Source: an uncultured Actinomycetes bacterium
Lineage (GTDB): Bacteria; Actinomycetota; UBA4738; JACQTL01
Assembly: GCA_963772375.1 (NCBI GenBank)
Contig: CAVYXG010000001.1
Span: forward strand, 787,809-851,808
DNA: 64,000 nucleotides
Reading direction: 5' to 3'
The translations under genes were made by a program, and so were the position numbers. Numbering within the stretch: the first letter of the stretch is position 1; each line of letters opens with the position of its first letter. Positions 5,917-28,672 of this stretch are shown piece after piece. The notes beneath the pieces were generated by a model that made no database searches, was not told where the DNA came from, and saw nothing but the letters and a program-made list of their open reading frames with translations.

Positions 5917-6425
5917 GCGGTTCTCCCTTCCCTCGTCGGGAACCTCGGAGCGGAAGGGTGCGCGGGCGCTTCGATCCGGTCACCCGGAGCGCGCGCTGCG
6001 CGCGGGAACGTCTTCAGCACACCGTGCGCGGTCTCCCGGCGCCGGTCGGTACGCCCCTGGAGGGTCCAGGCGACGCCGTCGGCGGCCAGTGGCCGCAGCG
6101 CGGCCGAGGTTCTCCTCTCGCCTGGCTTCGGGCCTCGCTCTGGGGGAGCGCCGGCCCGATCAGCCGGCGAGCACGTCTTCGGTGGCGGCGGGACCGGCTC
6201 GGCACGCCGGGTCGCCGTCGGCCTCCCGCGTCGCACGCGACGCGGACAGCTACGGACAAGGATAGCAATGCGGGGGGCCACCTGCTTCGAAAGCGCCGAA
6301 CAATCGGATCACTGGAATCGGGCAATGGTCGATGCCCATTTCGGGGTCGGACTTCCGTCGTATCAAGAGGAGCGTCCGGACCGCCGATCCCACAGACGAC
6401 ATGCGCATGAATTGGTCGAACGGGC
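5917..6425 (-). promoter_or_regulatory. long 5' leader / promoter region upstream of rne, divergent from the REC-HK gene
   Basis: About 500 nt with no credible ORF between the rne start and the divergent gene. By analogy with the autoregulated E. coli rne 5'UTR. Confidence 0.3.
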
Positions 6426-6554
6426 GTGGCTGACGCGCACCTCCGTTCCTGGCTCGGCCCCGTCACGCCCGGCGGCGACGCCCGCCGGCCGGGGACGCTG
6501 TTCTCCGCGCCCGTCGCCGGCCCGGTGCCCGGCGAGCCACGGGCGCTCCGCGTG

Positions 6555-7670
6555 ATGGTCGTCGACGACAACGACGGATTCCGGGAGTCGCTGGTGGCCC
6601 TGCTGGCAGCCGGCGGACACCAGATCGCCGGCGAGGCCACCAACGGAAGGGACGCCCTCGAGCTCCTCGAGCGGATCGACCCCGACGTAGTGCTGATGGA
6701 CATCCGGATGCCGGTCATGGACGGCATCGAGGCCACCCGCCGGATGAAGGTCGCCCGACCGTCGCTCGGCGTGGTCGCGCTCACCGCGCAGGAGGACGAC
6801 ACGATCGTCCGCGAGATGCTGGTCGCCGGCGCCACGGGCTACGTGCTGAAGGACTCCGACGGCGACGTGATCCTGAACGCGATCTCGGAGGCGGCCGGCG
6901 GCGGCGCCGTGCTCTCCCCCACGGTCGCCCCGCGCGTGATCGACCAGCTGACCGAGGCCCTCGAACGGGAGCGCCACCGTGCCCGCGAGCTCGAGGAGGC
7001 CCACGTGGCCCTGGTGGAACGTGTGAGCCGCCGCCACGAGCTGGTCGCGCGGCTGGGCCACGAGCTCCGGACCCCGATCACCGTCATCCTCGGCGTCGCC
7101 CGGACGCTCGCCGGCGGCGGCCTCGAGACCCGCCAGCGCGACGAGCTGCTCGAACGCCTGGTCGGCCGGGCCACCGCGCTGTCCCACCTGGTGGAGCGGT
7201 TCGAATCGGCGCTCGACACGGGGTCGGAGGACCGCATCGACATCGCGGCGACGGCCCGCGAGCTGGCGACCGCGTGGCCCCGGGTGCGGGTGACGTCGGA
7301 GCCGGGCCTCCCCGCGGTCCTGGCCAACCGGGTCCTGGTCCAGCGGATCCTCGAGGAGCTGGTCGACAACGCGTGCAAGTTCTCCGACCCCGAGAGCCCG
7401 GTCGAGGTCTCGGTGACGCTCGGGGCCGGGGCGCTCCAGGTCCGGATCACCGACGCCGGGGAGGGCATCCGGCCCGAGGACCAGGACCGTGTGTTCGAAC
7501 CGCTGGAACAGGCCGAGGCCCTCGACGCGCGCATCCACCAGGGCGCCGGCGTCGGCCTGTCGCTCGGGCGCGCCGCGGCGCGGGCCATGGACGGCGACCT
7601 GGTGCTGGAGCGATCCGGGCCGAGCGGGTCGACGTTCCTGTGGACGGTGGCGCTGCCGCCGATGCGGTAG
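6555..7670 (+). CDS. hybrid two-component protein: N-terminal receiver (REC) domain fused to HisKA + HATPase_c
   Basis: VMVVDDNDGFRESL...VVLMDIRMPVMDG is a REC domain with its Asp. It is followed by a coiled coil, an H-box LGHELRTPITVILG and an ATPase domain (ELVDNACKFS, GAGVGLSLGRAAA). No transmembrane or sensor domain. Start at ATG 6555 (or GTG 6552). Confidence 0.8.
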   Translation: MVVDDNDGFRESLVALLAAGGHQIAGEATNGRDALELLERIDPDVVLMDIRMPVMDGIEATRRMKVARPSLGVVALTAQEDDTIVREMLVAGATGYVLKDSDGDVILNAISEAAGGGAVLSPTVAPRVIDQLTEALERERHRARELEEAHVALVERVSRRHELVARLGHELRTPITVILGVARTLAGGGLETRQRDELLERLVGRATALSHLVERFESALDTGSEDRIDIAATARELATAWPRVRVTSEPGLPAVLANRVLVQRILEELVDNACKFSDPESPVEVSVTLGAGALQVRITDAGEGIRPEDQDRVFEPLEQAEALDARIHQGAGVGLSLGRAAARAMDGDLVLERSGPSGSTFLWTVALPPMR

Positions 7671-7688
7671 CCGCGGAGTCGACGAGGC

Positions 7689-8852
7689 TCAGCCCATCGC
7701 GCCGACCGTCAGCCGGCGCATGTGGATGTTCAGCAGCAGCCCAACCGCCAGGTAGCTCGCGACCAGCGACGACCCCCCGTACGACACGAACGGCAGCGGG
7801 ATCCCCGTGATCGGCATGATCCCCACGGTCATGCCGATATTGACGAACATCTGGATGGCGAACATCGACGCGATGCCGGCGGCCAGGTAGGTCCCGAACC
7901 TGTCCTTCGACAGCATCGCGATCCGGATGGCCCGCCACAGCAGCACCGCGTACAGCAGCAGCAGCAGCGCCGACCCGACGAACCCGAACTCCTCCCCGAT
8001 GACCGTGAAGATGAAGTCGGTGTGCTGCTCGGGGACGAAGTTCAGGTTGGTTTGCGTCCCCTGCAGATAGCCGGTGCCCTCGAAGCCGCCGTTGCCGACG
8101 GCGATCTCCGACTGCTTCTGGTTGTAGGTGGCGGCGGTGGTCCCGCCGCCGGTGAACCCGGTCAGCCGGTCGATCTGGTACTGCCTGATGAGCCCGGCCT
8201 GGAACGCCAGGGCGATCAGCAGGATGCCGACCGCCATCAGCACGCCGATGTGCCGCGCCCTGGCCCCGGCGACGACCACGATCCCCCCGAGGATGGCCGC
8301 GAGCACGATGGTCGTGCCGATGTCCGGTTGGATGAACACGAGGATCATGGGGATGAGCGCGATGACGGAGGCCCGGATGAGGTCGCGGAGGGACAGCTCC
8401 GGCGTCTTCAGCTCCGACAGGAACGCCGCGAGCATGATCGCGACCGCGATCTTGGTCCACTCCGACGGCGTGAACTGGAACCCGCCCACGTAGAACCCGC
8501 GCTGCGCGCCCTTGGCGGCGGTGCCGAGCGGCGTCCGGACGAGCAGGAGCAGGAACAGCGTCGCCGCGTACAGGATCGGCGCGTACACCTTCGCCAGCCG
8601 GTAGTCGACGAGCGCCACCCCGCCCAGGATGAGCACGGCGATCACCCACGCCAGAATCTGCTTCTTGACGAACGCCCACGGGTCGCCGCCCACGGCCACC
8701 TGGTGTGTCGCGGAGAAGATGGCGAAGGCACCGACCAGGGTGAGCAGGAACGTCGTCGCCAGCAGCACGGGGTCGAGGTGGCGGACCGGCGCGCGGTCGC
8801 TGAGGGAACCGATCCCCAGGGAACCCCGGCCGCGCTCCGTCGTCACCTGCAT
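7689..8852 (-). CDS. rodA: rod shape-determining protein RodA (SEDS family glycosyltransferase)
   Basis: 387 aa, multi-TM, FtsW/RodA motifs (GEEFGFVGSALLLLLY, PFVSYGGSSL). ATG at 8850-8852 by residue count. Confidence 0.9.
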   Translation of the reverse strand: MQVTTERGRGSLGIGSLSDRAPVRHLDPVLLATTFLLTLVGAFAIFSATHQVAVGGDPWAFVKKQILAWVIAVLILGGVALVDYRLAKVYAPILYAATLFLLLLVRTPLGTAAKGAQRGFYVGGFQFTPSEWTKIAVAIMLAAFLSELKTPELSLRDLIRASVIALIPMILVFIQPDIGTTIVLAAILGGIVVVAGARARHIGVLMAVGILLIALAFQAGLIRQYQIDRLTGFTGGGTTAATYNQKQSEIAVGNGGFEGTGYLQGTQTNLNFVPEQHTDFIFTVIGEEFGFVGSALLLLLYAVLLWRAIRIAMLSKDRFGTYLAAGIASMFAIQMFVNIGMTVGIMPITGIPLPFVSYGGSSLVASYLAVGLLLNIHMRRLTVGAMG

Positions 8853-8857
8853 CCGAG

Positions 8858-10804
8858 TCAGTCCTTCGCGGTCCCGGTCGCCGGGTCGGTGAGCGGCAGG
8901 CCGAACAGCCCGTCGAGAATCCGGCGGACGATCGGCGCGGCCGACTGCGACCCGTGGCCGCCCTGCTCGACCAACGACACGACGACGTACTGGGGATCGT
9001 TGGCCGGCGCCATCGCCGCGAACCACGAGAAGGGCTGGAGGGAACCCTTCTCCGCCGTCCCGGTCTTGCCGGCCACCGGGATCCGGCTGAGGGGGAATCG
9101 CTGAAAGGCCTGGACGGCGGTTCCGTCGCCCCGCACGACCCCGGTGAGCGCGTTCCGCACGTAGTCCATCTGCCTCTTCGAGAAGGGGAGGTGCCCGTTG
9201 ACGTGGGGCTTCCCGGTGAGGACCGTCTGACCCTTCGCGTTCACGATCTTGTCGAGCACGTGGGGGCGGTACACCGTGCCGCCGTTGGCGAGCGCAGAGT
9301 ACGCCGTGGCGAGCTGCAGTGGCGTGACCGACACGTCGCCCTGGCCGATCGACATGTTGATGTAGTCGCCCGGCTGCCAGTTCCGGTCGGTGGCCACCGG
9401 GTCGTCCGCGTAGGCCTTCTGCTTGTACGCCGGGTCGGGGATGATCCCGCTGTTCTCGCTGGGGATGTCGATGCCGGTGAGGTGGCCGAACCCGAGCGAC
9501 ATCAGGTCGTGCTGCAGGTAGTCGTGCTGACCCTGGTGGTACCAGTTCAGCCAGTTGTCCCACCCCAGCTGGTAGAAGACGGTGTCGCACGAGACGACCA
9601 ACGCATGCGCCAGCGAGATCGAGCCCAGGTTCACCGGCTCCCAGTTCGAGTGCACGGCGTCGGTCCCGGGGACCTGGTACGTGGCGGGGCACGGGATGTA
9701 GGACTTTGGGCCCGACGTGTGTGCGAACTCACGGTGCAGCGCAGACAGGGCGATGAACGGCTTGAAGGTCGAGCCGGGCGGATAGTACGACTGCATCGCC
9801 CGGTTCACGATGGCACACCCCGTCGAGTTGCAGAGGTTGTGCCCCTTCGGCTGCGCGAACAGCCGGTTGATCTCCTCGTTGTTGCCGGTCGCGAACCAGT
9901 TGGGGTCGAACGTTGGGTTGGACGCCATGGCCAGGAGGCCCCCGGTGTTCGGATCCATCACGACCACGGCCCCGGCGTTCGCCGGGAGGCCGAATGTCCT
10001 GGCGGCCTTCATCCCCTTCGCGAGCGACTCCGCCGCCAGCTGCTGGATCTTCGAGTCGAGCGTCAGGTAGACGTCGCCGCCGGCGACCGGCGGCGTCGAG
10101 GCGCCGGGCACGGGCCCCACGTTCCTCCCGGCGGAGTTCACCTGGTCGACCACGTGCCCCTTGGTGCCCTGGAGGTAGTGCTCGTACGAGAGCTCGACGC
10201 CGGACTTCCCGACGATGTCGTCCTGCGAGTACCGGGACGGAGGGAAGCTGGGGTTGGCCGCCTCCGTCGGCGAGAACGGCCCCACGTAGCCGAGCACGTG
10301 CGCCGCGAGGGGACCCTCCAGGTAGTCCCGGATCGAGTCCTGGACGATGGCCACGCCGGGGAACTGCGGGCGGTGTTCCCCGAGGTAGAAGAACGTCTTC
10401 TTGGGGACGTCGAACGCGACCGGCACCGGCGTGAACTCGTAGTACCGCTTGGTGTCGATGCGGCTCTGCATCTCCTTCGTGGAGATGCCGAGCACGATCG
10501 CGAGCCGGCGGAGCTCGTTGGCCTTGCGCGACGGGCCGGTGGGGAGGTCCTGCCGGTTGACGGTGACGACGAGGCTCGTCCGGTTCCGCGCCAGCACGAC
10601 CCCATTGCGGTCGAGGATGCGACCCCGCGGCGCCGGGACGTCGAGCGTCCGCGTGGCGTTCGCGCTCCCCTCCTGCTTGAGCTGCGCGTGGGCGAGCACC
10701 TGGACGAACCACAGCCGCGTCCCCAACGCGGCGAACATGAAGGCGCACAGCAGCGCCAGCACCTTGAGGCGTGCGCCCGACTTGCCCTCCGTCATCGCGG
10801 ACAA
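8858..10804 (-). CDS. mrdA: penicillin-binding protein 2 (transpeptidase)
   Basis: 648 aa with an N-terminal TM helix, a PBP dimerisation domain and a transpeptidase domain with STFKPF (SxxK), SNW/SxN and KTGTA motifs. Lies immediately upstream of rodA. Confidence 0.9.
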   Translation of the reverse strand: MSAMTEGKSGARLKVLALLCAFMFAALGTRLWFVQVLAHAQLKQEGSANATRTLDVPAPRGRILDRNGVVLARNRTSLVVTVNRQDLPTGPSRKANELRRLAIVLGISTKEMQSRIDTKRYYEFTPVPVAFDVPKKTFFYLGEHRPQFPGVAIVQDSIRDYLEGPLAAHVLGYVGPFSPTEAANPSFPPSRYSQDDIVGKSGVELSYEHYLQGTKGHVVDQVNSAGRNVGPVPGASTPPVAGGDVYLTLDSKIQQLAAESLAKGMKAARTFGLPANAGAVVVMDPNTGGLLAMASNPTFDPNWFATGNNEEINRLFAQPKGHNLCNSTGCAIVNRAMQSYYPPGSTFKPFIALSALHREFAHTSGPKSYIPCPATYQVPGTDAVHSNWEPVNLGSISLAHALVVSCDTVFYQLGWDNWLNWYHQGQHDYLQHDLMSLGFGHLTGIDIPSENSGIIPDPAYKQKAYADDPVATDRNWQPGDYINMSIGQGDVSVTPLQLATAYSALANGGTVYRPHVLDKIVNAKGQTVLTGKPHVNGHLPFSKRQMDYVRNALTGVVRGDGTAVQAFQRFPLSRIPVAGKTGTAEKGSLQPFSWFAAMAPANDPQYVVVSLVEQGGHGSQSAAPIVRRILDGLFGLPLTDPATGTAKD

Positions 10805-19103: not shown

Positions 19104-20360
19104 GTGGCTGCCGTGAGCGAACACGCCGAGCGCCGCCGCGTCGTCGTCACGGGCATCGGGCCGGTCACACCGGTGGGCATCGGCGTCGACGACTTCTGGA
19201 AGGGGCTGTCCACCGGGCGCAACGGCGTCCGGCGGATCGAGCGGTTCGATCCGTCCGGCCTCCCGGTCCAGCTGGCCGGCGAGGTCCCCGACTTCGAGCC
19301 GACCGACTTCCTCGAGCCGAAGGAGGTCAAGCGGACCGACCGCGTCGTGCACCTGGCGGTGTCGGCCGCGCATCTCGCGTACGAGGACGCCGGCAAACCC
19401 GAGATCACCGGCGAGCGGACGGGGGTGGTCATCTCGACGGGCATCGGCGGTATCGAGACCCTGCTCGACGCCCACAAGGTGCTGCTGGAGCGGGGGCCCG
19501 GCCGGGTGAGCGCCTTCATGGTCCCCGGCCTCATGGCGAACGCCTCCGCCGGACACATCGCCATGCACTTCGGCCTGACCGGGCCGAACATGTGCATCGT
19601 CACGGCGTGCGCGGCGGGCGCGCACGGCATCGGCGAGGCCTACCGCATGGTGCGCGACGGGATGATCGACGTGGCGCTGGCCGGCGGGACCGAGGCGGCG
19701 GTCGTCCCGCTCACGCTCGCCGCGTTCGCCCAGATGCAGGCGCTCACGAGGAACCCCGACCCGGAGACGGCCTCCCGGCCGTTCGACGCCGAGCGCGACG
19801 GGTTCGTCATGTCCGAGGGCGCCACCGTGCTGGTGCTCGAGTCCGAGGAGCATGCCCGCGCCCGGAGCGCGCGGATCTACGGCGAGATCGCCGGGTACGG
19901 CGCGTCGGCGGACGCGTTCCATATCACACAGCCCGAGCCCAGCGGCTCCGGCGCGGCGATCGCGATCCGCCTGGCCCTCCGCGACGCCGGCGCCTCCCCC
20001 GCGGACGTCGGATACATCAACGCGCACGGCACCTCGACGCCGCTCAACGACGCCGCCGAGACCGCCGCCATCAAGGCCGCGCTCGGCGAGGATGTTGCGC
20101 GCAGCATCCCGGTGTCGTCGACCAAGTCCATGACCGGCCACCTGACCGGCGCGGCCGGTGCGCTCGAGGCCGGGGCCACGGCGCTCGCCGTCCACAACGG
20201 CCTGCTCCCCCCGACCATCCACTACCATACGCCGGATCCCGACTGCGACCTCGATCCGATCCCGAACGAGGCCCGCGCCGCCGACGTGACGCTCGCGCTC
20301 TCGAACTCCTTCGGGTTCGGCGGGCAGAACGCCGTCCTCGCGATCCGACGCGCGTCGTAA
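19104..20360 (+). CDS. fabF: 3-oxoacyl-ACP synthase II (KAS II)
   Basis: 418 aa with the active-site triad TACAAG...HGTSTP...GHL and the C-terminal motif NSFGFGG. Confidence 0.9.
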   Translation: MAAVSEHAERRRVVVTGIGPVTPVGIGVDDFWKGLSTGRNGVRRIERFDPSGLPVQLAGEVPDFEPTDFLEPKEVKRTDRVVHLAVSAAHLAYEDAGKPEITGERTGVVISTGIGGIETLLDAHKVLLERGPGRVSAFMVPGLMANASAGHIAMHFGLTGPNMCIVTACAAGAHGIGEAYRMVRDGMIDVALAGGTEAAVVPLTLAAFAQMQALTRNPDPETASRPFDAERDGFVMSEGATVLVLESEEHARARSARIYGEIAGYGASADAFHITQPEPSGSGAAIAIRLALRDAGASPADVGYINAHGTSTPLNDAAETAAIKAALGEDVARSIPVSSTKSMTGHLTGAAGALEAGATALAVHNGLLPPTIHYHTPDPDCDLDPIPNEARAADVTLALSNSFGFGGQNAVLAIRRAS

Positions 20361-20576
20361 CGCCCGCCCCAACTCCCCCTGGGGCGCCTCCCGCCCCCGC
20401 CATTCGGTCGGGGACCGAACGTCGGGGTCGACCTCATCGGTCCTGATGTCCGGACCTTTCGGGTGACGTCAACATCGGCCGAAGGACCAGAAAGCGCCGT
20501 TCGGGGCCCCGTTTCGTCAGGCAACTCCTCCGTCCAGCCGATACCTCATTCGGAGACGTGAAGGGAGTCGAGAACG

Positions 20577-22097
20577 ATGCGGCATCACCCGGGAGCCCGA
20601 CCCGGTCCCCCCGCTGAACGACCGAACCGGCCGGTCCGCCGGACCGCCGCCGCCGCGGCCGGGCTGGTGCTCGCCCTGCAGCTCGCCGGCGCGGTCACGG
20701 CATCCCCGGCGCAGGCCTTCACCGGCAGGAACAGCGTCATCGCCTACGTCGGCCCCGGGACCTCGTCCAAGGACGCCACGGACCTGTGGGTATCCAACCC
20801 CGACGGGAGCAACGCCCGGGACATGACCCCGCGCGACGGCCGGTGGGAAGCCTCCCCGATGTGGTTCGTCGAGCCGGGCCGGATCCTGTTCGTGAGCGGG
20901 AAGAAGGGCGGCCCCGGTGATCTGTACGACATGTACCAGTCGGGGAAGGGCCTCGAGAACCTGACGAACACACCCGACGCGAACGAGGGCTCGCCCTCCT
21001 ACTCGCCCGGGGGTGGACGGATCACGTACTCGCGGTCGCTCTGGCGGAGCGGGCTGTTCGGGCCCGCCGACATCTGGCTGATGACGTGGACGGGCGACGA
21101 TCCGCAGAACCTCACCCAGAACGCGAACGGCAACCTATCCAACACCGACCCCGTGTGGTCGCCGGACAGCTCGCTCCTGGCGTACGTGCGGTGGACCGGA
21201 GGCGTGCCCGGGATCCGGCTGATGTCCTCGGGCGGGCTGAAGATCAAGAACGCCGTGGACCTCGCGGTGACGCCCGGGCAGGACCCCGCATTCGACTCGC
21301 ACCGGGTGGGCGGCAACTTCCAGCTCGTGTACTCGTACCAGGGCGACCTCTGGAAGGTCGTCATCCCGGACCCGGTGCACCCCACGACCGGCAGGCTCGA
21401 CGTGCACCCGGTGCAGCTGACGAACCCGGGCAAGGGCTTGCAGGACACCCACCCGATGTGGTCACCGGACGGCACGCGGATCGTGTTCCAGCGGGGAACG
21501 CACACCATGATCATGGTGGCCGCGCCCGGCAGCGGCGCCCGTCAGCTCACCTCGCACACCTCGACCGAGCCCGACTGGCAGCCCGGCTGCACCCGCGAGG
21601 GCGGGGACGGCAGCGACGTCCTGAGGGGAACGCCCGGTGACGACCTCCTCTGCGACTACAACGGGAACGACACGATCATCGGCCTCGGCGGCGACGACGT
21701 GATCTTCCCCGGCGCGGGCGCCGACATCGTGTACGCGGGGCCGGGCGACGACTACGTGCTCGGCGGCGTGGGGGACTACGGCGACGTCATCCACGGCGGG
21801 TCGGGCAACGACCTGCTGGACGGGCTGCTGGGCAACGACTGGCTGTACGGTGACGATGGGAACGACCGGCTGCAGGCGGGCGACGGCAACGACCACCTGT
21901 TCGGCGGGGCCGGGACCGACTCCATGATCGGCGGCCCGGGTTCGGACCTCCTCGACGGCGGCTCCGGTCGGGACCTGCTGAACAACCTCGACGCCAGGGG
22001 CGACGACACGAGTGACGGCGGCGCCGGGCAGGACACCTGCTGGACCGACGACGGGGACCTCCGGCTCGGCTGCGAGATGCCGGGCTGGGCCAACTAG
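20577..22097 (+). CDS. secreted TolB-like beta-propeller protein with C-terminal RTX (hemolysin-type) calcium-binding repeats
   Basis: N-terminal signal peptide with a possible Tat motif (VRRTAAAAAG). PD40-like repeats WSPDSSLLAYV and WSPDGTRIVF. C-terminal GGxGxD nonapeptide repeats GTPGDDLLCDYNGNDTIIGLGGDDVIFPGAGADIVYAGPGDDYVLGG. Confidence 0.8.
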   Translation: MRHHPGARPGPPAERPNRPVRRTAAAAAGLVLALQLAGAVTASPAQAFTGRNSVIAYVGPGTSSKDATDLWVSNPDGSNARDMTPRDGRWEASPMWFVEPGRILFVSGKKGGPGDLYDMYQSGKGLENLTNTPDANEGSPSYSPGGGRITYSRSLWRSGLFGPADIWLMTWTGDDPQNLTQNANGNLSNTDPVWSPDSSLLAYVRWTGGVPGIRLMSSGGLKIKNAVDLAVTPGQDPAFDSHRVGGNFQLVYSYQGDLWKVVIPDPVHPTTGRLDVHPVQLTNPGKGLQDTHPMWSPDGTRIVFQRGTHTMIMVAAPGSGARQLTSHTSTEPDWQPGCTREGGDGSDVLRGTPGDDLLCDYNGNDTIIGLGGDDVIFPGAGADIVYAGPGDDYVLGGVGDYGDVIHGGSGNDLLDGLLGNDWLYGDDGNDRLQAGDGNDHLFGGAGTDSMIGGPGSDLLDGGSGRDLLNNLDARGDDTSDGGAGQDTCWTDDGDLRLGCEMPGWAN

Positions 22098-22144
22098 CCC
22101 CGGCGCACCCCCCGCGAGGCCGCGCCCCAGGACCGACGACCCCG

Positions 22145-23839
22145 CTATCCCGTTTCGGGCGGCGGGATCGGAAGACACGGCAGGTGGTCGATCAGCGTGG
22201 ACGGGTAGGCGATCCGGAACGCGGGGTCGTTCGCCGTCCCGGGCGGGATCACGCTGTCGGTGGTGGCCACCTGCTGCTTCGTCAGCGTCATGATGTAGTT
22301 CGAGATCTCGGTGAGGTTCGCCCCGGCCTTCCGCACGTTGTCCATGTTCATGAAGAGCCAGGTCGGCTGGAACGACTGGATCAGGGGGCCCGACCCCGGC
22401 GTGCCGAACTTCTCCTGGATCAGCGGCTGGACGCGCGTCTTGGCGATGCGGATGGCGCCGGTGGTCCTCGGGTCCGGCGTGTGGCCGTGGTCGGCCGTGA
22501 GGACCATGACCCAGTTCCCCCGCCCGACGTCGGTGTTCAGGATCTTGACGAGCTGCGGCAGCTGGTCGTCCTGAACCTTCACCGTGTCGTGCATCTCCGG
22601 GCTGTCGAGGTTCCAGATGTGCCCGACCTCGTCGATCAGCTTGTAGTTCAAGTAGAAGAGGTCGGGGACGTCGTCGGCTCCGAATCCCTCGCGCTTGATG
22701 ACGGTGCGGACGACGTTTGTCTGGAACGGCAGCCGGGCCGGCGTGTCGAACCCCCCTCGGACCTTCGGGATGTCCTTGCCCCGCCACAGGCCGTCCATCT
22801 TCCCGTCGGCCGCGTCCGCGACCGGGAAGTACGTCGACAGGGCCGGGAGGTCGTTCACGTAGGAGGGGAACGAGTAGAACGGCCCGTTGACGCCGCCGAG
22901 GCCCCACTGGACGCTGCTCCGCCCGCCGTGCAGCACGGCGATGTCCTTGTCACCGCCCTGGAGCTCCGACCCGTGGCTCATCATCCCCAGGTGGAACGAG
23001 GCCGTCGCGGCGAGCCCGACCAGCGGCTTGTTCCCCATGGCCTTGTCGTATTCGTCCGCCAGCGTGGGGAGGAGGAGGTCCTTGGGTCCGTCGCCCCAGG
23101 GGGCCCGGACGTGTCCGTCCATCAGCATGTGGTTGCCGATGATGCCGTGCAGCCGGGGGTAGGCCCCCGTGCCGATGGTGGCGTGGATCTGGGCGGTGCT
23201 TGTGGGGTTCGAGCCCACCGTCGCATGGCTGAAGTACGTCCCCTCCTTCTCCAGCCGGTCCAGGTTGGGATGCTGCTTCGGCCACCGGTTGAGCACCACC
23301 AGGCCGCCCGCGTCGTACACCACGGTGAGGATCAGCCGGGGCGGCGTCTTCCGCTGCGCGGCCGGCACGAGCGCCTCGGTCATCGGCCTGCCGTCCGGCG
23401 CGTCGAACTTGAAGTGGAGCAGGTCGGCGACCGTCGGGGCGATGTCGGCCGAGGTCACCGGCCTCGTCACCGTCCCCTGTGACTTGATGTAGCCGGGTCC
23501 GTACCACAGCATCGGAACGTCCTCGAGGTACGGCCACGGGCCCGCGTGCGGATAGATGTCGTTGCCGGCGACGAAGTTCGGCAGGGTCGGAAGGATCTGG
23601 ATATGCCCGCTCCGGTCTTGGCGCCACCCCCGCCACGTCTCCACCAGCCACTGGTGGGGCAGCTTGCAGACCTTCGCCGCGAGGGCCGACACGGCGGCGG
23701 GATCGGAACCCCCGGTCGTGGCCCGTGCCGGGGAACCGTCGGTGGAACGCGGCCCACCCCCGGCGGAGGTGCACGCGGCTCCGAGCAGCAGGACGACGAC
23801 GATCGCCGCCGGCAGCGGGCGTAGGCGCATGGCGGACAC
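22145..23839 (-). CDS. alkaline phosphatase-superfamily lipoprotein (phosphodiesterase/pyrophosphatase-like)
   Basis: Lipobox LLLGAAC and the metal-site-like motif VLTADHGHTPD. The start may be 23830 (MRLRP). Confidence 0.65.
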   Translation of the reverse strand: MSAMRLRPLPAAIVVVLLLGAACTSAGGGPRSTDGSPARATTGGSDPAAVSALAAKVCKLPHQWLVETWRGWRQDRSGHIQILPTLPNFVAGNDIYPHAGPWPYLEDVPMLWYGPGYIKSQGTVTRPVTSADIAPTVADLLHFKFDAPDGRPMTEALVPAAQRKTPPRLILTVVYDAGGLVVLNRWPKQHPNLDRLEKEGTYFSHATVGSNPTSTAQIHATIGTGAYPRLHGIIGNHMLMDGHVRAPWGDGPKDLLLPTLADEYDKAMGNKPLVGLAATASFHLGMMSHGSELQGGDKDIAVLHGGRSSVQWGLGGVNGPFYSFPSYVNDLPALSTYFPVADAADGKMDGLWRGKDIPKVRGGFDTPARLPFQTNVVRTVIKREGFGADDVPDLFYLNYKLIDEVGHIWNLDSPEMHDTVKVQDDQLPQLVKILNTDVGRGNWVMVLTADHGHTPDPRTTGAIRIAKTRVQPLIQEKFGTPGSGPLIQSFQPTWLFMNMDNVRKAGANLTEISNYIMTLTKQQVATTDSVIPPGTANDPAFRIAYPSTLIDHLPCLPIPPPETG

Positions 23840-23963
23840 TCAACAGCACGAAACCCGGAAGGGCAACCTACGCACCCTGATCAGTCGGGGGGCGTCTTTG
23901 TCGGCCCTGGGGACTTCTGGAAGGATGGCGGGCTCTTCCGCGGAGCCAGGAGGCCAGGTTCGA

Positions 23964-25316
23964 ATGCCCGAGGAGAATCCGTTCCAGTACGTCCGGCTGC
24001 TCGGGAGCTGGATGGAGTCCAGGGGTGGCTGGTGGCACAGCTTCGAGCTGCCCGACGGGACGATCGTCGAGGGCGCCAACGACCTCACCGGGCTGCGGAG
24101 CCGCCTGGCCCGGTTCCCCATCCCCCAGGACCTCACCGGCAAGCGCGTGCTCGACATCGGGGCCTGGGACGGCTGGTTCAGCTTCGAGATGGAGAAGCGC
24201 GGCGCCGAGGTCCTGGCCATCGACAACTGGGACAACCCGCGATTCCACCAGATGCGCCAGATGATGGGCTCCTCGGTCGAGTACCGGATCATGGACGTCT
24301 ACGACCTCACGCCGGAGCGGATCGGACGGTTCGACCTGGTGCTGTTCCTCGGCGTCCTGTACCACCTCAAGCACCCCATCCTGGCCCTCGAACGGGTCGC
24401 GGCGCTGTCCACGGACATGGCGGCGGTCGAGTCGTTCGTGCTCCGGGAGGAGCACCGGCCCGGCGAGCGGGTCCTGGAGCGGCCGATCATGGAGTTCTAC
24501 GAGGTCGACGAGCTGGGCGGCCAGACCGACAACTGGGTCGGGCCGAGCGTGCCCACGTTGATGGCGTTCTGCCGCACGGCCGGCTTCGCACGGGTGAACC
24601 TCGAGGCCATCACTGAGTTCAGCGCGTGCGTGATCTGCTACCGCCGGTGGGACGACCGGGTCGACCCCGACGGCGCGGCGCCCCGGCTGGTGGCCGCGCA
24701 CCGCAACCCAGGCCAGGGCATCAACTTCTCCACCGAGCGCGACGACTACGTCAGCGTGTTCTTCGAGTGGGACCCGCCGCGGCGTCGGGACCGCGGCGAG
24801 CTGGGCCTCGACGACGTTCAGCCCGAGGTGGGCGGGTACGGCACGCGCCCGCTGTACGTCGGTCGCCCGGAGGCCGGGGGGATCCAGGCGAACTTCAAGC
24901 TGCCACCCGGGCTCGAGCCCGGCTGGCAGCCCGCGCGCGTCCGCGTGAAGAACGGCCCGGCCAGCAACGCCGTCGAGGTCGCCGTCGACGTGCCTCCCGC
25001 GACCGACCGGCTGACCATCCAGGGCGTTGCCGGCGACCCCGGCGGGACCGCGAACCACGTGGCCGCGGGCACCGGCCGGTCGCTCGCCATCACGGTCGAG
25101 GGGCTCCCGGAGAACGCCGACCTGGTGAACGTGTTCGTGGTGCTCGGCCCCGGACGGCTCACCGTGCGCTCGGTGGAGCCCACCGGGCGGGGCGCGCCCG
25201 GCCCGCGCACGGTCGTGGCCGAGGTGCCGGACGGCCTCGAGGCCGGGCCGTACGACGTGCGGGTCGCGGTGGGCTCGATGCAGAGCGAGCCCGTCTCGGT
25301 CGCGGTCGCCGCCTGA
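23964..25316 (+). CDS. class I SAM-dependent methyltransferase (DUF1698/TIGR04290-like) with ~250-aa C-terminal extension
   Basis: HSFELPDGTIVEG...GKRVLDIGAWDGWFSFEMEKRGAEVLAIDNWD (SAM-binding motif I). Start chosen at MPEENPF, which has an AGGAGG-like RBS and avoids overlap with the divergent gene. The ORF is open from 23556. Confidence 0.65.
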   Translation: MPEENPFQYVRLLGSWMESRGGWWHSFELPDGTIVEGANDLTGLRSRLARFPIPQDLTGKRVLDIGAWDGWFSFEMEKRGAEVLAIDNWDNPRFHQMRQMMGSSVEYRIMDVYDLTPERIGRFDLVLFLGVLYHLKHPILALERVAALSTDMAAVESFVLREEHRPGERVLERPIMEFYEVDELGGQTDNWVGPSVPTLMAFCRTAGFARVNLEAITEFSACVICYRRWDDRVDPDGAAPRLVAAHRNPGQGINFSTERDDYVSVFFEWDPPRRRDRGELGLDDVQPEVGGYGTRPLYVGRPEAGGIQANFKLPPGLEPGWQPARVRVKNGPASNAVEVAVDVPPATDRLTIQGVAGDPGGTANHVAAGTGRSLAITVEGLPENADLVNVFVVLGPGRLTVRSVEPTGRGAPGPRTVVAEVPDGLEAGPYDVRVAVGSMQSEPVSVAVAA

Positions 25317-25346
25317 CGGCGTTCCGTCCGGCGTTCGTTCCGGTCC

Positions 25347-26888
25347 CTACTGCTGCTCGCAGTTCGAATCGTGCTCCCCGGCGACGCAGATGTCGTCGCC
25401 CGTGCCGCCGTCGAGCGTGTCGATCTGGGGGTCGCCGTTGAGCAGGTCGTTCCCCGGGCCGCCCTCGAGGGTGTCGTTCGTATGGCCCCCGTACAGGCGG
25501 TCGTTCCCCGGGCCGCCGAGAATCACGTCGTCGCCGTCCCCTCCGTAGTCGGTGTCGTTCCCCGGCCCGAGGTCGAAGTGGTCGGGGGCGCCCCCGCTGT
25601 ACGCCGTGTCGTTCCCGGAGCCGCCGATCACCACGTGGGGCGTGGCGCTCTCGGCGATGAGGACGTCGTCGCCGCCGCCGCCGCTCAGGCGGTCCGGGCT
25701 GTGGTCGATGCCGCCGATCAGCACGTCGCCGTCGTCGCCCCCGAGGAGCGCGTCGGTTCCGTTGTCCCCCGACAGGTAGTCGAGGCCCGGGCCACCGTCC
25801 ATCCGGTCGTTGCCGTCGCCGCCGGTGAGGTCGTCCATCCCGGAGCTGCCGCAGATGAGGTCGTCACCGCCGCCACCGGAGATGACGTCGTCGCCCCCGA
25901 GGCCGACGATCACGTCGTCGCCCGGCGTTCCCGTGAGGACGTCGTTGCCGTTCGTCCCCACGATGGTCGGGGTCCGGCCGAAGCACATCGCTCCGGCCGA
26001 GCCGGCGCCACCGTTCGGGGAGGGCGGTGGGGGGGTCACCGGGGGCGCGCACCCCGGAGCGTTCGCCGGGTTCAGGCACTGGTTCTGCCCGGTGCCGGCG
26101 TCCATCCGGTTGACGCCGTCGTTGCCGTCCATCGCGTCGTTGCCGGGCCCGCCGCGCATGACGTCGTCGTCGCCGCCGCCGTACAGGCGGTCGTCGCCGC
26201 CGTTCCCGAACATGCGGTCCCTGCCGGGTTCGCCGATCAGGACGTCGGGGCCGTCTCCCCCGATCAGCAGGTCGTTGCCCTCCCAGGCGTGCAGGATGTC
26301 GGCGCCGGGACCGCCGTCGAGGACGTCGTCGCCGGGCCCGCCGGAGAGCGCGTCGTCGCCGGGCCCGCCGATCAGGTGGTCCTTGCCCTTGTCGAGCCCG
26401 CCCCCGGTCATCATGTCGTCGCCGGTGCCGCCGTTCTGGTAGTCGTTGCCCTTGACGCCGTAGACACCGTCGTCGCCCGGGCCGCCCCACAGCCGGTCGT
26501 TCCCGTCGAACCCCAGGACGTCGTCGTCGCCGCCCCCGCCGAGGATCACGTCGTCGCCGGTCCACCCGGACAGCACGTCGTTGCCGGGCCCGCCGCAGAG
26601 GGTGTCGTCGCCGCCCCCGCCCTCGATGTCGTCGTTGCCGCCGAGACCGACGATGACGTCGTCGCCCGTGGTGCCGACCAGGTGGTCGCCCTGTGGGGTT
26701 CCGACGATGGTCGCGACCTTGCCGCGGCAGGTGAGCTCGCCGGGCGTCGACGGGCCAACGGTTCCGCGGGAGCCGGACGACGGCGACGCGGACGCCGACG
26801 ACGACGCCGGCGGGGGCTGGGCGTTGGCCGTGCAGCCGGCGATCAGCAGGCCGACGGCGAGGATCGGGAGGAAGGTTCGCGAGCGCAT
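25347..26888 (-). CDS. RTX-repeat (hemolysin-type Ca-binding) lipoprotein with an internally duplicated module
   Basis: Lipobox LLIAGCT. Dozens of GGxGxDxL repeats. Two copies of the module CxGxxxTIVGTxGxDxLxGTxGDDVIVGLGGxDDI, at residues ~82-110 and ~330-360. Confidence 0.8.
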   Translation of the reverse strand: MRSRTFLPILAVGLLIAGCTANAQPPPASSSASASPSSGSRGTVGPSTPGELTCRGKVATIVGTPQGDHLVGTTGDDVIVGLGGNDDIEGGGGDDTLCGGPGNDVLSGWTGDDVILGGGGDDDVLGFDGNDRLWGGPGDDGVYGVKGNDYQNGGTGDDMMTGGGLDKGKDHLIGGPGDDALSGGPGDDVLDGGPGADILHAWEGNDLLIGGDGPDVLIGEPGRDRMFGNGGDDRLYGGGDDDVMRGGPGNDAMDGNDGVNRMDAGTGQNQCLNPANAPGCAPPVTPPPPSPNGGAGSAGAMCFGRTPTIVGTNGNDVLTGTPGDDVIVGLGGDDVISGGGGDDLICGSSGMDDLTGGDGNDRMDGGPGLDYLSGDNGTDALLGGDDGDVLIGGIDHSPDRLSGGGGDDVLIAESATPHVVIGGSGNDTAYSGGAPDHFDLGPGNDTDYGGDGDDVILGGPGNDRLYGGHTNDTLEGGPGNDLLNGDPQIDTLDGGTGDDICVAGEHDSNCEQQ

Positions 26889-26965
26889 CGGGGACCGGCC
26901 CACCCTATGCCGGATCCCCGGACTTGGGGCGGAGGCCGCGGGACCGGATCCGGGGGGTCGCGGAC

Positions 26966-27373
26966 TCACGAGCCGAAGAACAGCCGGAGCTCGCGTTCGG
27001 CCGACTCGGGGGAGTCGCTGCCGTGCACGGCGTTCTCCCCGATCAGCGTGGCGAAGTCACCCCGGATCGTTCCCGGCGAGGCCTCGATGGGATTGGTCGA
27101 GCCCATGAGCCCCCGGAGCGCGGCCACGGCCTGCTCCCCGGTGACCTTGGCCACGACGACCGGCCCGCTCGTGATGAACTCGACGAGCTCGCCGAAGAAC
27201 GGCTTGTCGCGGTGCTCGCCGTAGTGCTCCTCCGCGGTGGCGCGTTCGATACGGATCAGCCGCAGCTCGTCGATGCGGAGGCCCTTGGCCTCGATGCGGC
27301 GCAGGACCTCGCCGATCAGGCCGCGGCGGACGGCGTCGGGCTTGACGATGAGCAGGGTGGACTGTTCGGCCAT
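26966..27373 (-). CDS. ndk: nucleoside diphosphate kinase
   Basis: 135 aa, [15 protein letters not shown]...NAVHGSDS (active-site His). Confidence 0.95.
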
Positions 27374-27385
27374 GTTCGGGGTCCT

Positions 27386-28672
27386 TCAGGGTCGTTCGAC
27401 GATGGCGGTGCGGGCGTCCGCGACAGTGTACAGAGAGCCCGTCACCAGGATGAGGTCGCCCTCCTGGGCCTGGTCCTGGGCGGCCGCGAGCGCCTCGTGC
27501 ACGCCGGGATACGCGGTGGTCGGGACGCCGGCGGCGACGAGGGCTGACTCGATCACGTCGGCAGGGGCGCTCCGAGCGCTGGTGTTGCGCGCCGCGTAGC
27601 CGGCGTCGGCCAGCGGGGCCAGCCGGGCCGCGATGCCCTCCACGTCCTTGTTCGACGAACACGCCAGCACCAGGTGGACGCGTTCCGGCGTGAAGGCCTC
27701 CCGGATCGCCCTGGCGAGCGCCTCGGCCCCGGCGGGGTTGTGGGCGCCGTCGACGACGATGAGCGGGCGCCGGGCGAGCACCTCGAGCCGCCCGGGCGCC
27801 GTGAACGCCCCGAGCGTCTCCTCCACCGCCTCGTCGGCCAGCTTCCGGTCGACGAACGCCTCGAACGCCACCAGCGCCGCGGCCGCGTTTCGGGCGACGT
27901 GCTCGCCGAACAGCGGCAGGCGCAGCCCCTCGTAGCTGCCGAACAGACCACGGACGGTGACCGACTGGGCGCCGATCCCCTGGATGCGCCCGGCGAGCTC
28001 CCAGTCGCGCCCCTCGAGCAGCACCTGGGCCTGCATCTCCCGCGCCCGCGCCTCGATCACCGTGAGCGCCTCCGCGGACTGCTCCCGCACGACCGCGGTC
28101 TTCCCCGCCTTGATGATCCCGGCCTTCTCGGTGGCCACGTCCCGAACGGTGGAACCGAGCTCCGGATGGTCGAGCGAGATCGGGGTGACGACCGCCACGT
28201 CGCCCGCCACCAGGTTGGTCGCGTCCCAGGTCCCCCCCATCCCCACCTCGAACACGCCCACGCTCACCGGCTTGTCCGCGAACCACACGAACGCCAGCGC
28301 CGTGAGCGTCTCGAAGTACGTGACTGGCTGGTCGCCCGTGCGGTCGACCTCGAGCAGGAACGGCAGCAGCCGTTCGTACTCCTCGGCGAACTCCTCCGGC
28401 GAGATCGGCTCGTCGCAGAGCGCGAGCCGTTCGGTCACGTCGTGCAGATGGGGAGACGTGTAGACGCCGGCGGACAGGCCGTGAGCGCAGGCCAGGGCGC
28501 CGATCAGCCGCGTGGTCGTCGTCTTGCCGTTGGTCCCGGTGACGTGGATGGTCGGGTACGCCAGCTCGGGATGATCAAGCAGATTGACCAACGCGGTGAT
28601 GCGGTCGAGGTCGGGCACCATGCGCTGGGGCTGGCGGCCGTCGAGGTCCGCGATGGCGTCGCGAGCGTTCAT
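27386..28672 (-). CDS. folC: bifunctional folylpolyglutamate synthase/dihydrofolate synthase
   Basis: 428 aa with P-loop HVTGTNGKTTT and the Mur ligase family fold. ATG at 28670-28672 by residue count. Confidence 0.85.
   Translation of the reverse strand: MNARDAIADLDGRQPQRMVPDLDRITALVNLLDHPELAYPTIHVTGTNGKTTTTRLIGALACAHGLSAGVYTSPHLHDVTERLALCDEPISPEEFAEEYERLLPFLLEVDRTGDQPVTYFETLTALAFVWFADKPVSVGVFEVGMGGTWDATNLVAGDVAVVTPISLDHPELGSTVRDVATEKAGIIKAGKTAVVREQSAEALTVIEARAREMQAQVLLEGRDWELAGRIQGIGAQSVTVRGLFGSYEGLRLPLFGEHVARNAAAALVAFEAFVDRKLADEAVEETLGAFTAPGRLEVLARRPLIVVDGAHNPAGAEALARAIREAFTPERVHLVLACSSNKDVEGIAARLAPLADAGYAARNTSARSAPADVIESALVAAGVPTTAYPGVHEALAAAQDQAQEGDLILVTGSLYTVADARTAIVERP

Follow-up and report, generated by a model that had tools for sequence, protein, structure and literature searches.

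The window analysed here is a stretch of 64,000 nucleotides (nt) from an uncultured Actinomycetes bacterium (positions 787,809 to 851,808 of contig CAVYXG010000001.1, assembly GCA_963772375.1), and its interval 20577-26888 holds four genes, here called A to D. A and D encode RTX (repeats-in-toxin) proteins, B encodes a lipoprotein of the alkaline phosphatase superfamily and C encodes an S-adenosylmethionine (SAM) methyltransferase. With moderate confidence in the whole, we read A and D as exported beta-rolls whose ends are capped by cysteines, B as a circularly permuted phosphoesterase, A, B and D as a set acting at the cell surface, and C as a passenger. The locus appears to be an unexceptional example of a variant RTX beta-roll that is widespread and apparently undescribed, and its most unusual item is the permuted phosphoesterase B. 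The interval is laid out as follows:

20577-22097, plus strand: gene A, predicted exported PD40 beta-propeller with a C-terminal capped beta-roll, 506 amino acids (Pfam PD40, HemolysinCabind)
22145-23830, minus strand: gene B, apparently permuted PafA/PhoK-type lipoprotein, 561 amino acids (Pfam, NCBIfam, profile against PDB, AlphaFold2)
23831-23963, no strand: 133-nt spacer between the divergent genes B and C (AGGAGG 9 nt ahead of the start codon ATG of C)
23964-25316, plus strand: gene C, cytoplasmic class I SAM methyltransferase, 450 amino acids (homologues, fold matches)
25347-26888, minus strand: gene D, predicted lipoprotein with two capped beta-roll domains, 513 amino acids (Pfam, profile, self-alignment)

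The RTX repeats are matched by Pfam family PF00353 with 89.9 bits over six stretches in A and 212.4 bits over 11 stretches in D. An earlier note on this DNA had described A as a propeller joined to RTX repeats and D as an RTX lipoprotein, and both descriptions hold, with PD40 repeats and C-terminal RTX repeats in A, and the 11 stretches and a lipobox in D. Two pairs of cysteines mark the ends of the rolls. The first pair, the N-cap, has the consensus C-x-G-x2-[AP]-T-I-V-G-T...C, in which the second Cys stands exactly 44 residues after the first and closes the fifth nonapeptide; the second pair, the C-cap, forms a hairpin motif, DGGxGxDxC-x(8-11)-C. D carries both caps, and A carries the C-cap, with C-x20-C in place of the N-cap. 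The export signals of A, B and D were read by eye from the sequence, the lipoboxes being compared with a PROSITE-type rule. The features of the two proteins are:

20577-20717, plus strand: signal peptide of A, residues 1-47, with RR in the n-region, a hydrophobic core, and AQA then F (by eye)
21588-22073, plus strand: beta-roll domain of A, with N-cap C338-x20-C359 and C-cap DGGAGQDTC488-x10-C499 (sequence, orthologues)
26832-26888, minus strand: lipoprotein signal of D, MRSRTFLPILAVGLLIAGC, lipobox LIAGC, with IAG then C19 (by eye)
26049-26729, minus strand: domain 1 of D, residues 54-280, with N-cap C54-x43-C98 (26595-26729) and C-cap C271-x8-C280 (26049-26105)
25359-25985, minus strand: domain 2 of D, residues 302-510, with N-cap C302-x43-C346 (25851-25985) and C-cap C501-x8-C510 (25359-25415)

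D has nine cysteines in total, namely the lipobox Cys19 and the pairs 54/98, 271/280, 302/346 and 501/510, and its C-caps read GTGQNQC-x8-C (residues 265-280) and GGTGDDIC-x8-C (494-510). In A, which has four, Cys338 stands four residues ahead of the first repeat, Cys359 closes the second repeat, and the C-terminal hairpin (481-499) is followed by seven residues and the stop. All 13 are kept in the orthologues at locus L001. An N-cap profile built from 15 outside copies only gave 69.6 bits for D residues 54-98 and 80.0 bits for residues 302-346 (profile positions 2-52); the other repeats of D reached at most 29 bits and started at profile position 9 or later. Against the same profile, A left positions 1-13, the Cys-x-G-x2-A-T-I-V-G-T head, unmatched, and its best score of 19 bits is at the level of a generic repeat. 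The earlier note had placed one shared module in both proteins, which is right for D and wrong for A with its own C-x20-C cap; the two copies expected in D near residues 82 and 330 were found at 81 and 329 in the numbering of a 540-residue open reading frame (ORF), equivalent to 54 and 302 of the 513-residue protein.

An internal duplication in D had also been proposed for the module, and it is present, extending over the whole domain. Aligned from first to last Cys, the two halves are 42% identical over 237 columns and score 442, where shuffled sequences give 105 +/- 15. Since they align over the whole domain, D is best read as a single domain duplicated in tandem, each copy being a complete capped unit of N-cap, RTX repeats and C-terminal hairpin. 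Pfam and NCBIfam searches with D returned generic RTX models only, none of which spans the Cys head or the hairpin. The propeller of A has PD40 beta-propeller repeats in common with the known TolB, but A scores 61.4 bits against an equivalog cut-off of 343, is matched at the propeller positions only, lacks the N-terminal domain of TolB, and continues into a fused beta-roll.

The caps recur in many proteins outside the window. A homologue search with the 59-residue module returns proteins of similar length and so supplies examples, no census; its short metagenome matches comprise 23 proteins of 82-104 residues. The sequence C-x-G-x2-A-T-I-V-G-T follows a signal-like N-terminus in 21 of 22 retrieved short proteins, one more having a variant head, and of the 17 whose length reaches that far, 15 have the second Cys at +44. 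A tblastn search of plasmids with the module gave no match, probably owing to the low-complexity filter. Scanning metagenomes with a strict DNA pattern of the head gave at least 129 copies on at least 120 contigs. Among the matches listed, to which the following counts refer, the second Cys is present in all 121 complete copies, at +44 in 108, +45 in 10, +48 in two and +55 in one. Of 127 ORFs, 95 have the first module no more than 50 residues from a hydrophobic, signal-like stretch and 20 have it behind another domain; fusion partners include SpoIID, an endonuclease/exonuclease/phosphatase domain, PGA_cap, FG-GAP and DUF5122 propellers, and a proprotein-convertase P-domain. Counted from the N-cap Cys to the stop, the number of cysteines is even in 94 of 98 complete ORFs (96%), 66 of which have exactly four. 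In 69 of the 98 the C-terminus is no more than 12 residues away from the last Cys, and a loose pattern finds the C-terminal hairpin in 62 of 98 outside proteins. The module-bearing contigs have a median GC content of 68%, with a few at 40%. A sub-family of about 610-665 residues (L090, L110, L116, L125, L133, L164 and L191) carries one extra residue in the N-cap (GGPNGNDxIC), with the second Cys at +45, and L116 and L164 hold two adjacent paralogues each. A role of the N-cap Cys as a lipobox Cys was considered and rejected; the residues ahead of it are not lipobox-like, and it lies several residues past signal-peptidase-I-type sites.

An exhaustive profile search returned 177,220 representatives, mostly giant generic RTX proteins, and was reused as a negative control and not as a count of modules. 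The 150 best giant RTX representatives contain 307 block-start-like motifs, none with either Cys, and their overall Cys content is 0.05%. RTX structures in the PDB (CyaA blocks, serralysins, lipases and AlgE R-modules) match the profile from position 9-12 onward only, and no solved structure in this comparison covers the Cys head or the hairpin. On these sequences, TIVGTxGxDxLxG can be regarded as the ordinary start of any RTX block, and the Cys pair as an addition typical of a signal-peptide-exported class and ubiquitous within it. The module is thus a widespread domain cap and not, as the earlier note had it, novel to this cluster; the doubt that it might be no more than the start of any RTX roll is justified for its non-Cys part and unfounded for the Cys pair.

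RTX beta-rolls are textbook cargo of type I secretion and are held to fold from a C-terminal cap. The rolls of A and D have in common with classical blocks (serralysin/alkaline protease, CyaA, AlgE R-modules; PF00353) the tandem GGxGxDxUx nonapeptides and the block start x-(I/V)-x-G-T-x-x-x-D-x-L-x-G. A further common point is that the ends have to be capped; RTX proteins are described as lacking cysteines and requiring capping for Ca2+-induced folding (PMC6891781). The two kinds differ in that classical RTX proteins have a C-terminal type I signal and are almost free of Cys, whereas the proteins described here have an N-terminal signal peptide or lipoprotein signal and two conserved Cys pairs per domain.

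We propose that A, with its signal peptide, and D, with its lipoprotein signal, would leave the cell by these N-terminal signals and not by type I secretion. The chain would be exported unfolded via Sec, after which extracellular Ca2+ would fold the roll, and two disulfides would lock both of its open ends, replacing the capping segments of classical RTX blocks. In the repeat register the first N-cap Cys opens a degenerate unit (position 1) in which TIV makes the first strand; the second occupies position 9 of unit five, two strands further along the same face of the roll. A disulfide between them would fasten the N-terminal tail over the initial two and a half turns, and the N-cap so stapled would be a likely folding nucleus because Sec delivers the N-terminus first. 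Type I secretion delivers the C-terminus first.

That the cysteines have some other role, for example in binding metal, in attaching lipid or as a recognition site for a sorting or processing enzyme, seems to us improbable. The usual position of the N-cap a few residues past the signal peptide could suggest processing or sorting, but the even Cys counts, with four per domain as the rule, favour pairing, as does the perfect co-occurrence of the two N-cap cysteines: every complete copy has both, none has the first only, and the classical starts have neither. The proteins go to an oxidising compartment, the residues ahead of the N-cap Cys do not resemble a lipobox, and D has a lipobox Cys of its own. 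We find it scarcely credible that A and D should be classical RTX toxins, or type I substrates with their secretion genes at another place in the genome. Such proteins would fit the strong PF00353 matches and the partial hits to models of RTX toxins and serralysins, and tandem repeats of the strict RTX kind are present, but every toxin-model score is far under its cut-off, the conserved cysteines (nine in D, four in A) differ from the near absence of Cys in classical RTX proteins, and there is no uncleaved C-terminal secretion signal of the kind that goes without an N-terminal one, since A has a signal peptide, D a lipobox, and both end in the Cys hairpin. A scan of 20 further large ORFs of the window gave no type I secretion genes, ATP-binding cassette (ABC) or HlyD, and RTX genes have been reported in six Actinobacteria without type I secretion genes (PMC3034196). 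The actinobacterial RTX-like proteins of Linhartova et al. 2010 (PMC3034196) resemble those described here in coming from Gram-positive bacteria without type I secretion components, but they are only listed there, with caps, signal peptides, domain duplication and enzyme fusions undescribed, and we found no description of the Cys caps in the literature. The earlier note had already held that this is not a classical RTX toxin locus, and the N-terminal export signals and the lack of secretion genes among the scanned ORFs bear that out.

Gene B was recognised from the start as an alkaline phosphatase-superfamily lipoprotein containing VLTADHGHTPD, and the motif, together with matches to Pfam Phosphodiest and NCBIfam PafA (108 bits against a 650-bit cut-off), confirms this; the lipoprotein signal reads LLLGAA then C. 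Two features carry the argument on its fold:

22472-22504, minus strand: motif VLTADHGHTPD of B, with metal ligands Asp447 and His448, both invariant in 33 homologues
23369-23635, minus strand: residues 66-154 of B, corresponding to the C-terminal part of PafA (435-534), with metal ligand His95 and the DIAPTV helix (profile against PDB)

The best sequence and fold matches of B are PafA (5tj3) and PhoK/SPAP (3q3q, 5xwk), but the matching segments come in a different order along the chain. Compared singly with the PDB, residues 66-154 of B correspond to 445-533 of PafA, 164-234 to 18-90, and 376-519 to 270-418. A profile of 33 family members gives the same picture, with 50-147 matching 435-534 (independent E-value 1.8e-7), 154-225 matching 16-89 (4.6e-4) and 373-520 matching 268-419 (8.6e-20). 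Sulfatases match the N-terminal segment of B by their C-terminal parts in the same profile comparison, and residues 66-154 alone match the last 45 positions of Pfam Sulfatase. Across the 33 homologues H95, D173, D400, H404, D447 and H448 never vary, and T212 is kept in at least 90%; the invariant residues align to the His ligand, the Asp ligand and the DxxxH and DHG motifs of PafA, and T212 aligns to its Thr nucleophile, so that the Thr nucleophile region, DxxxH, DHG and last His ligand of PafA and PhoK are all kept in B. The AlphaFold2 model of B has a predicted local distance difference test score (pLDDT) of 85.9, with 84-98 in the N-terminal segment, and a predicted template modelling (TM) score of 0.86. 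Its best matches among solved structures, again PafA and PhoK/SPAP, reach a TM-score of only about 0.5, as would be expected of a sequential aligner applied to a permuted chain.

From these alignments and the model, B and its family, which counts more than 1,300 clusters, mostly from metagenome-assembled genomes of Actinomycetota, appear to be circularly permuted, with the last 100 or so residues of PafA placed first, behind the lipoprotein signal. B is probably an active, membrane-anchored phosphoesterase with this permuted fold. It differs from PafA and PhoK in its chain order, in its lipoprotein signal, in falling short of collinearity and of the equivalog cut-off, and in the two cysteines that its family has near the new termini. 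These, Cys55 (about 23666-23668) and Cys552 (about 22175-22177), are invariant in the 33 members and lie at the ends of the mature chain, and it seems likely that a disulfide between them joins the new termini. We found no report in the literature of a circular permutation of such an enzyme.

Most of the distant B homologues (L084, L085, L087, L209, L210, L211 and L213) adjoin znuA, ABC and ABC-3 genes and genes of the Fur family (Zur-like), which suggests that the phosphoesterase family is under zinc-responsive regulation. Distant homologues are also often found upstream of a gene for a major facilitator superfamily (MFS) transporter of about 930-1,140 residues, and tandem arrays of three to four B-family paralogues occur at L211 (4756-11385) and L212 (10180-13713).

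Protein C stands apart from the other three. Its N-terminal half has its best fold matches in CmoB, ToxA and RebM (Foldseek), and it has no signal peptide. It has the class I SAM methyltransferase fold in common with CmoB/DUF1698 and TIGR04290, but scores under their cut-offs (95.2 against 300 for TIGR04290, 49.8 against 209 for CmoB) and adds at its C-terminus two immunoglobulin (Ig)-like domains that are conserved within its own family:

24681-25313, plus strand: residues 240-450 of C, two tandem Ig-like beta-sandwich domains (AlphaFold2, Foldseek, family conservation)

This part is all-beta in the AlphaFold2 model (pLDDT about 80-90), its Foldseek matches are IPT, filamin, EpoR and BIg tandem domains, and it shows a weak match to a Solibacter C-terminal domain. 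The complete 450-residue architecture is kept in more than 3,600 proteins. The C-terminal extension noted earlier is therefore real, at about 210 residues and not 250 when counted from the start at 23964. The neighbourhoods of C homologues were compared at 80 species-level loci from other species (L004-L083); 79 belong to Acidobacteriota, mostly Bryobacterales, and one to Actinomycetota. A homologue of B or RTX repeats were found within 10 kb of the C homologue in none of the 80, and a weak match to the propeller of A occurred at L038 only. No neighbouring family recurs in more than nine of the 80 loci, which gives no clue to the function of C; at some acidobacterial loci, several paralogous methyltransferase genes adjoin one another. 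C is a cytoplasmic passenger unrelated to A, B and D, and it was possibly acquired by horizontal transfer, as its presence in this actinomycetotal genome, in the clade of the window only, suggests.

Whether A, B and D belong together depends on loci further afield. Complete four-gene synteny is found only at L001 and L002, where the proteins are 78-93% identical and the fab and valS flanks are kept too; it is uninformative. The four-gene synteny that the earlier note had asked for was not seen beyond such relatives. Ten other loci of the B family were picked without regard to RTX genes. At one of them, L086 (GCA_046263085.1), the B homologue is about 50% identical, and an A orthologue follows 81 nt downstream on the same strand, among flanking genes all unlike those of the window. 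This orthologue has 445 residues, a signal peptide, PD40 repeats (31% identity to the propeller of A) and the C-terminal hairpin, and its cap, ACTVSGTDHRDVLHGTDGSDLIC, has the C-x20-C spacing of A. At L095, a single gene encodes a signal peptide and a canonical capped roll fused to a permuted domain of the B type (41% identity over 530 residues, catalytic motifs present); two genes for two-domain D-like rolls and then one for a sulfatase (CCPSR motif) follow it on the same strand with short gaps, the array spanning 3919-10077. This array looks like a compact secreted-hydrolase cluster. The conserved A-B pair and the Rosetta-stone fusion argue for a real, if facultative, functional link between the B family and capped-roll proteins. 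Since members of the B family turn up in distant lineages both beside an A orthologue and in fusion with a capped roll, a joint role of A, B and D at the cell surface is plausible, with B as the phosphoesterase and A and D as its Ca2+-stabilised partner or scaffold proteins.

Several points weigh against this reading. The link between A, B and D comes from two distant loci, counts too small for statistics; no RTX gene lies near the B homologue in nine of the ten other B-family loci, seven of which adjoin znuA/ABC/ABC-3/Fur-type genes or the gene of an MFS transporter of about 1,100 residues. The L095 fusion may reflect a general promiscuity of the roll, which is fused to many unrelated enzymes. 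In the window the four genes are on alternating strands, and co-regulation of A, B and D is at most a possibility; a scan of 20300-27450 gave neither a sigma-70 consensus promoter nor a terminator, and no PHO-box-like repeat was seen in the B-C spacer. The abundance of the capped domain is known as a lower bound, given by the contigs counted above, and the disulfides and Ca2+ binding proposed for caps and rolls draw on sequence statistics. It is accordingly conceivable, although we think it on the doubtful side, that A, B and D are mere neighbours, independent exported proteins, with common capped rolls adjoining or fused to B by chance or as an ancestral remnant. The sparse occurrence of RTX genes beside B homologues, the single B homologue (L095) among the 120 module-bearing contigs in the matches listed, the variety of enzymes fused to the roll, the lack of co-orientation, and the neighbour-joining trees, in which the B family, at about 50% identity, takes the shape of a star with no RTX-linked clade resolved, all fit such independence. 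Yet the neighbour at L086 is specifically an A orthologue, with PD40 repeats and C-x20-C, close by on the same strand among other flanks; L095 joins the fusion and two D-like genes in one same-strand array; and chance adjacency of a particular single-copy family is of the order of one in a thousand per genome.

The wider proposal of the earlier note, that all four genes including the methyltransferase form one calcium-dependent extracellular set built around a novel module common to its RTX proteins and serving, for example, to scavenge phosphate or to modify the surface layer, we consider very unlikely. Its co-functional set survives in part for A, B and D through L086 and L095: these three are predicted to be exported, links between RTX proteins and the phosphoesterase recur, and all four genes stay together at L001 and L002. 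It does not survive for C, which is without a signal peptide, shows no linkage at its 80 family loci and is absent from L086 and L095; nor is the module in A, the strands alternate, and the module occurs in hundreds of unrelated contexts. We favour the surface set of A, B and D with C as its passenger. A bolder version, which we think rather improbable, would make the capped roll a large Ca2+-dependent folding class for Sec-exported proteins, nucleated at the N-cap in mirror image of the C-terminus-first folding of type I RTX proteins; in a subset of Actinomycetota, A- and D-type proteins and the permuted PafA-type phosphoesterase would then form a surface complex scavenging organophosphate.

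The four genes run A plus, B minus, C plus and D minus, with gaps of 47, 133 and 30 nt. As the strands alternate, there is no operon, and the interval would consist of four genes each transcribed separately. It lies within a housekeeping region, with obg, RNase E/G, PBP2, mreDCB, a Ser/Thr kinase gene and fabD-fabH-fabG-acpP-fabF on the side of A (216 nt from fabF to A) and ndk-folC-valS, with clpX and tig further out, on the side of D (77 nt from ndk to D, both on one strand). The whole window has a GC content of about 70%, and its closest relative is GCA_036557505.1. Rfam gave no match inside the interval 20577-26888; at the edge of the window it matched group II intron domains D1-D4 (RF02003, 94 bits) at 87-222 on the minus strand. 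Exact translations of A and C are present in a public protein collection. For B, 23830 is most likely the start, giving 561 residues, with a GTG at 23839 as the alternative; the call at 23830 is the one made in relatives and in one Logan contig. A 586-residue ORF was rejected as the form of C, in view of the AGGAGG upstream of 23964, the alignment of homologues from the Met at this position and the exact 450-residue protein on record. The frame of D is open to a GTG at 26969 (540-residue version; 26889-26969), overlapping the ndk stop codon by 4 nt. The 513-residue form, starting MRSRTF, agrees with the gene call of an orthologue, and exactly this protein is not in the public collection.

For annotation, the message is that this locus is neither a toxin locus nor a four-gene system. 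The apparently permuted B family matters both for the annotation of such phosphoesterases and for studies of environmental phosphorus cycling. The same RTX repeat that is known from type I secretion occurs very commonly in high-GC environmental bacteria in proteins exported by signal peptides, with paired cysteines at both ends. If the disulfides proposed here are true, these proteins would offer a natural system in which to test how capping and the direction of export govern Ca2+-driven folding of a beta-roll, and would provide a compact, stapled beta-roll for protein engineering.

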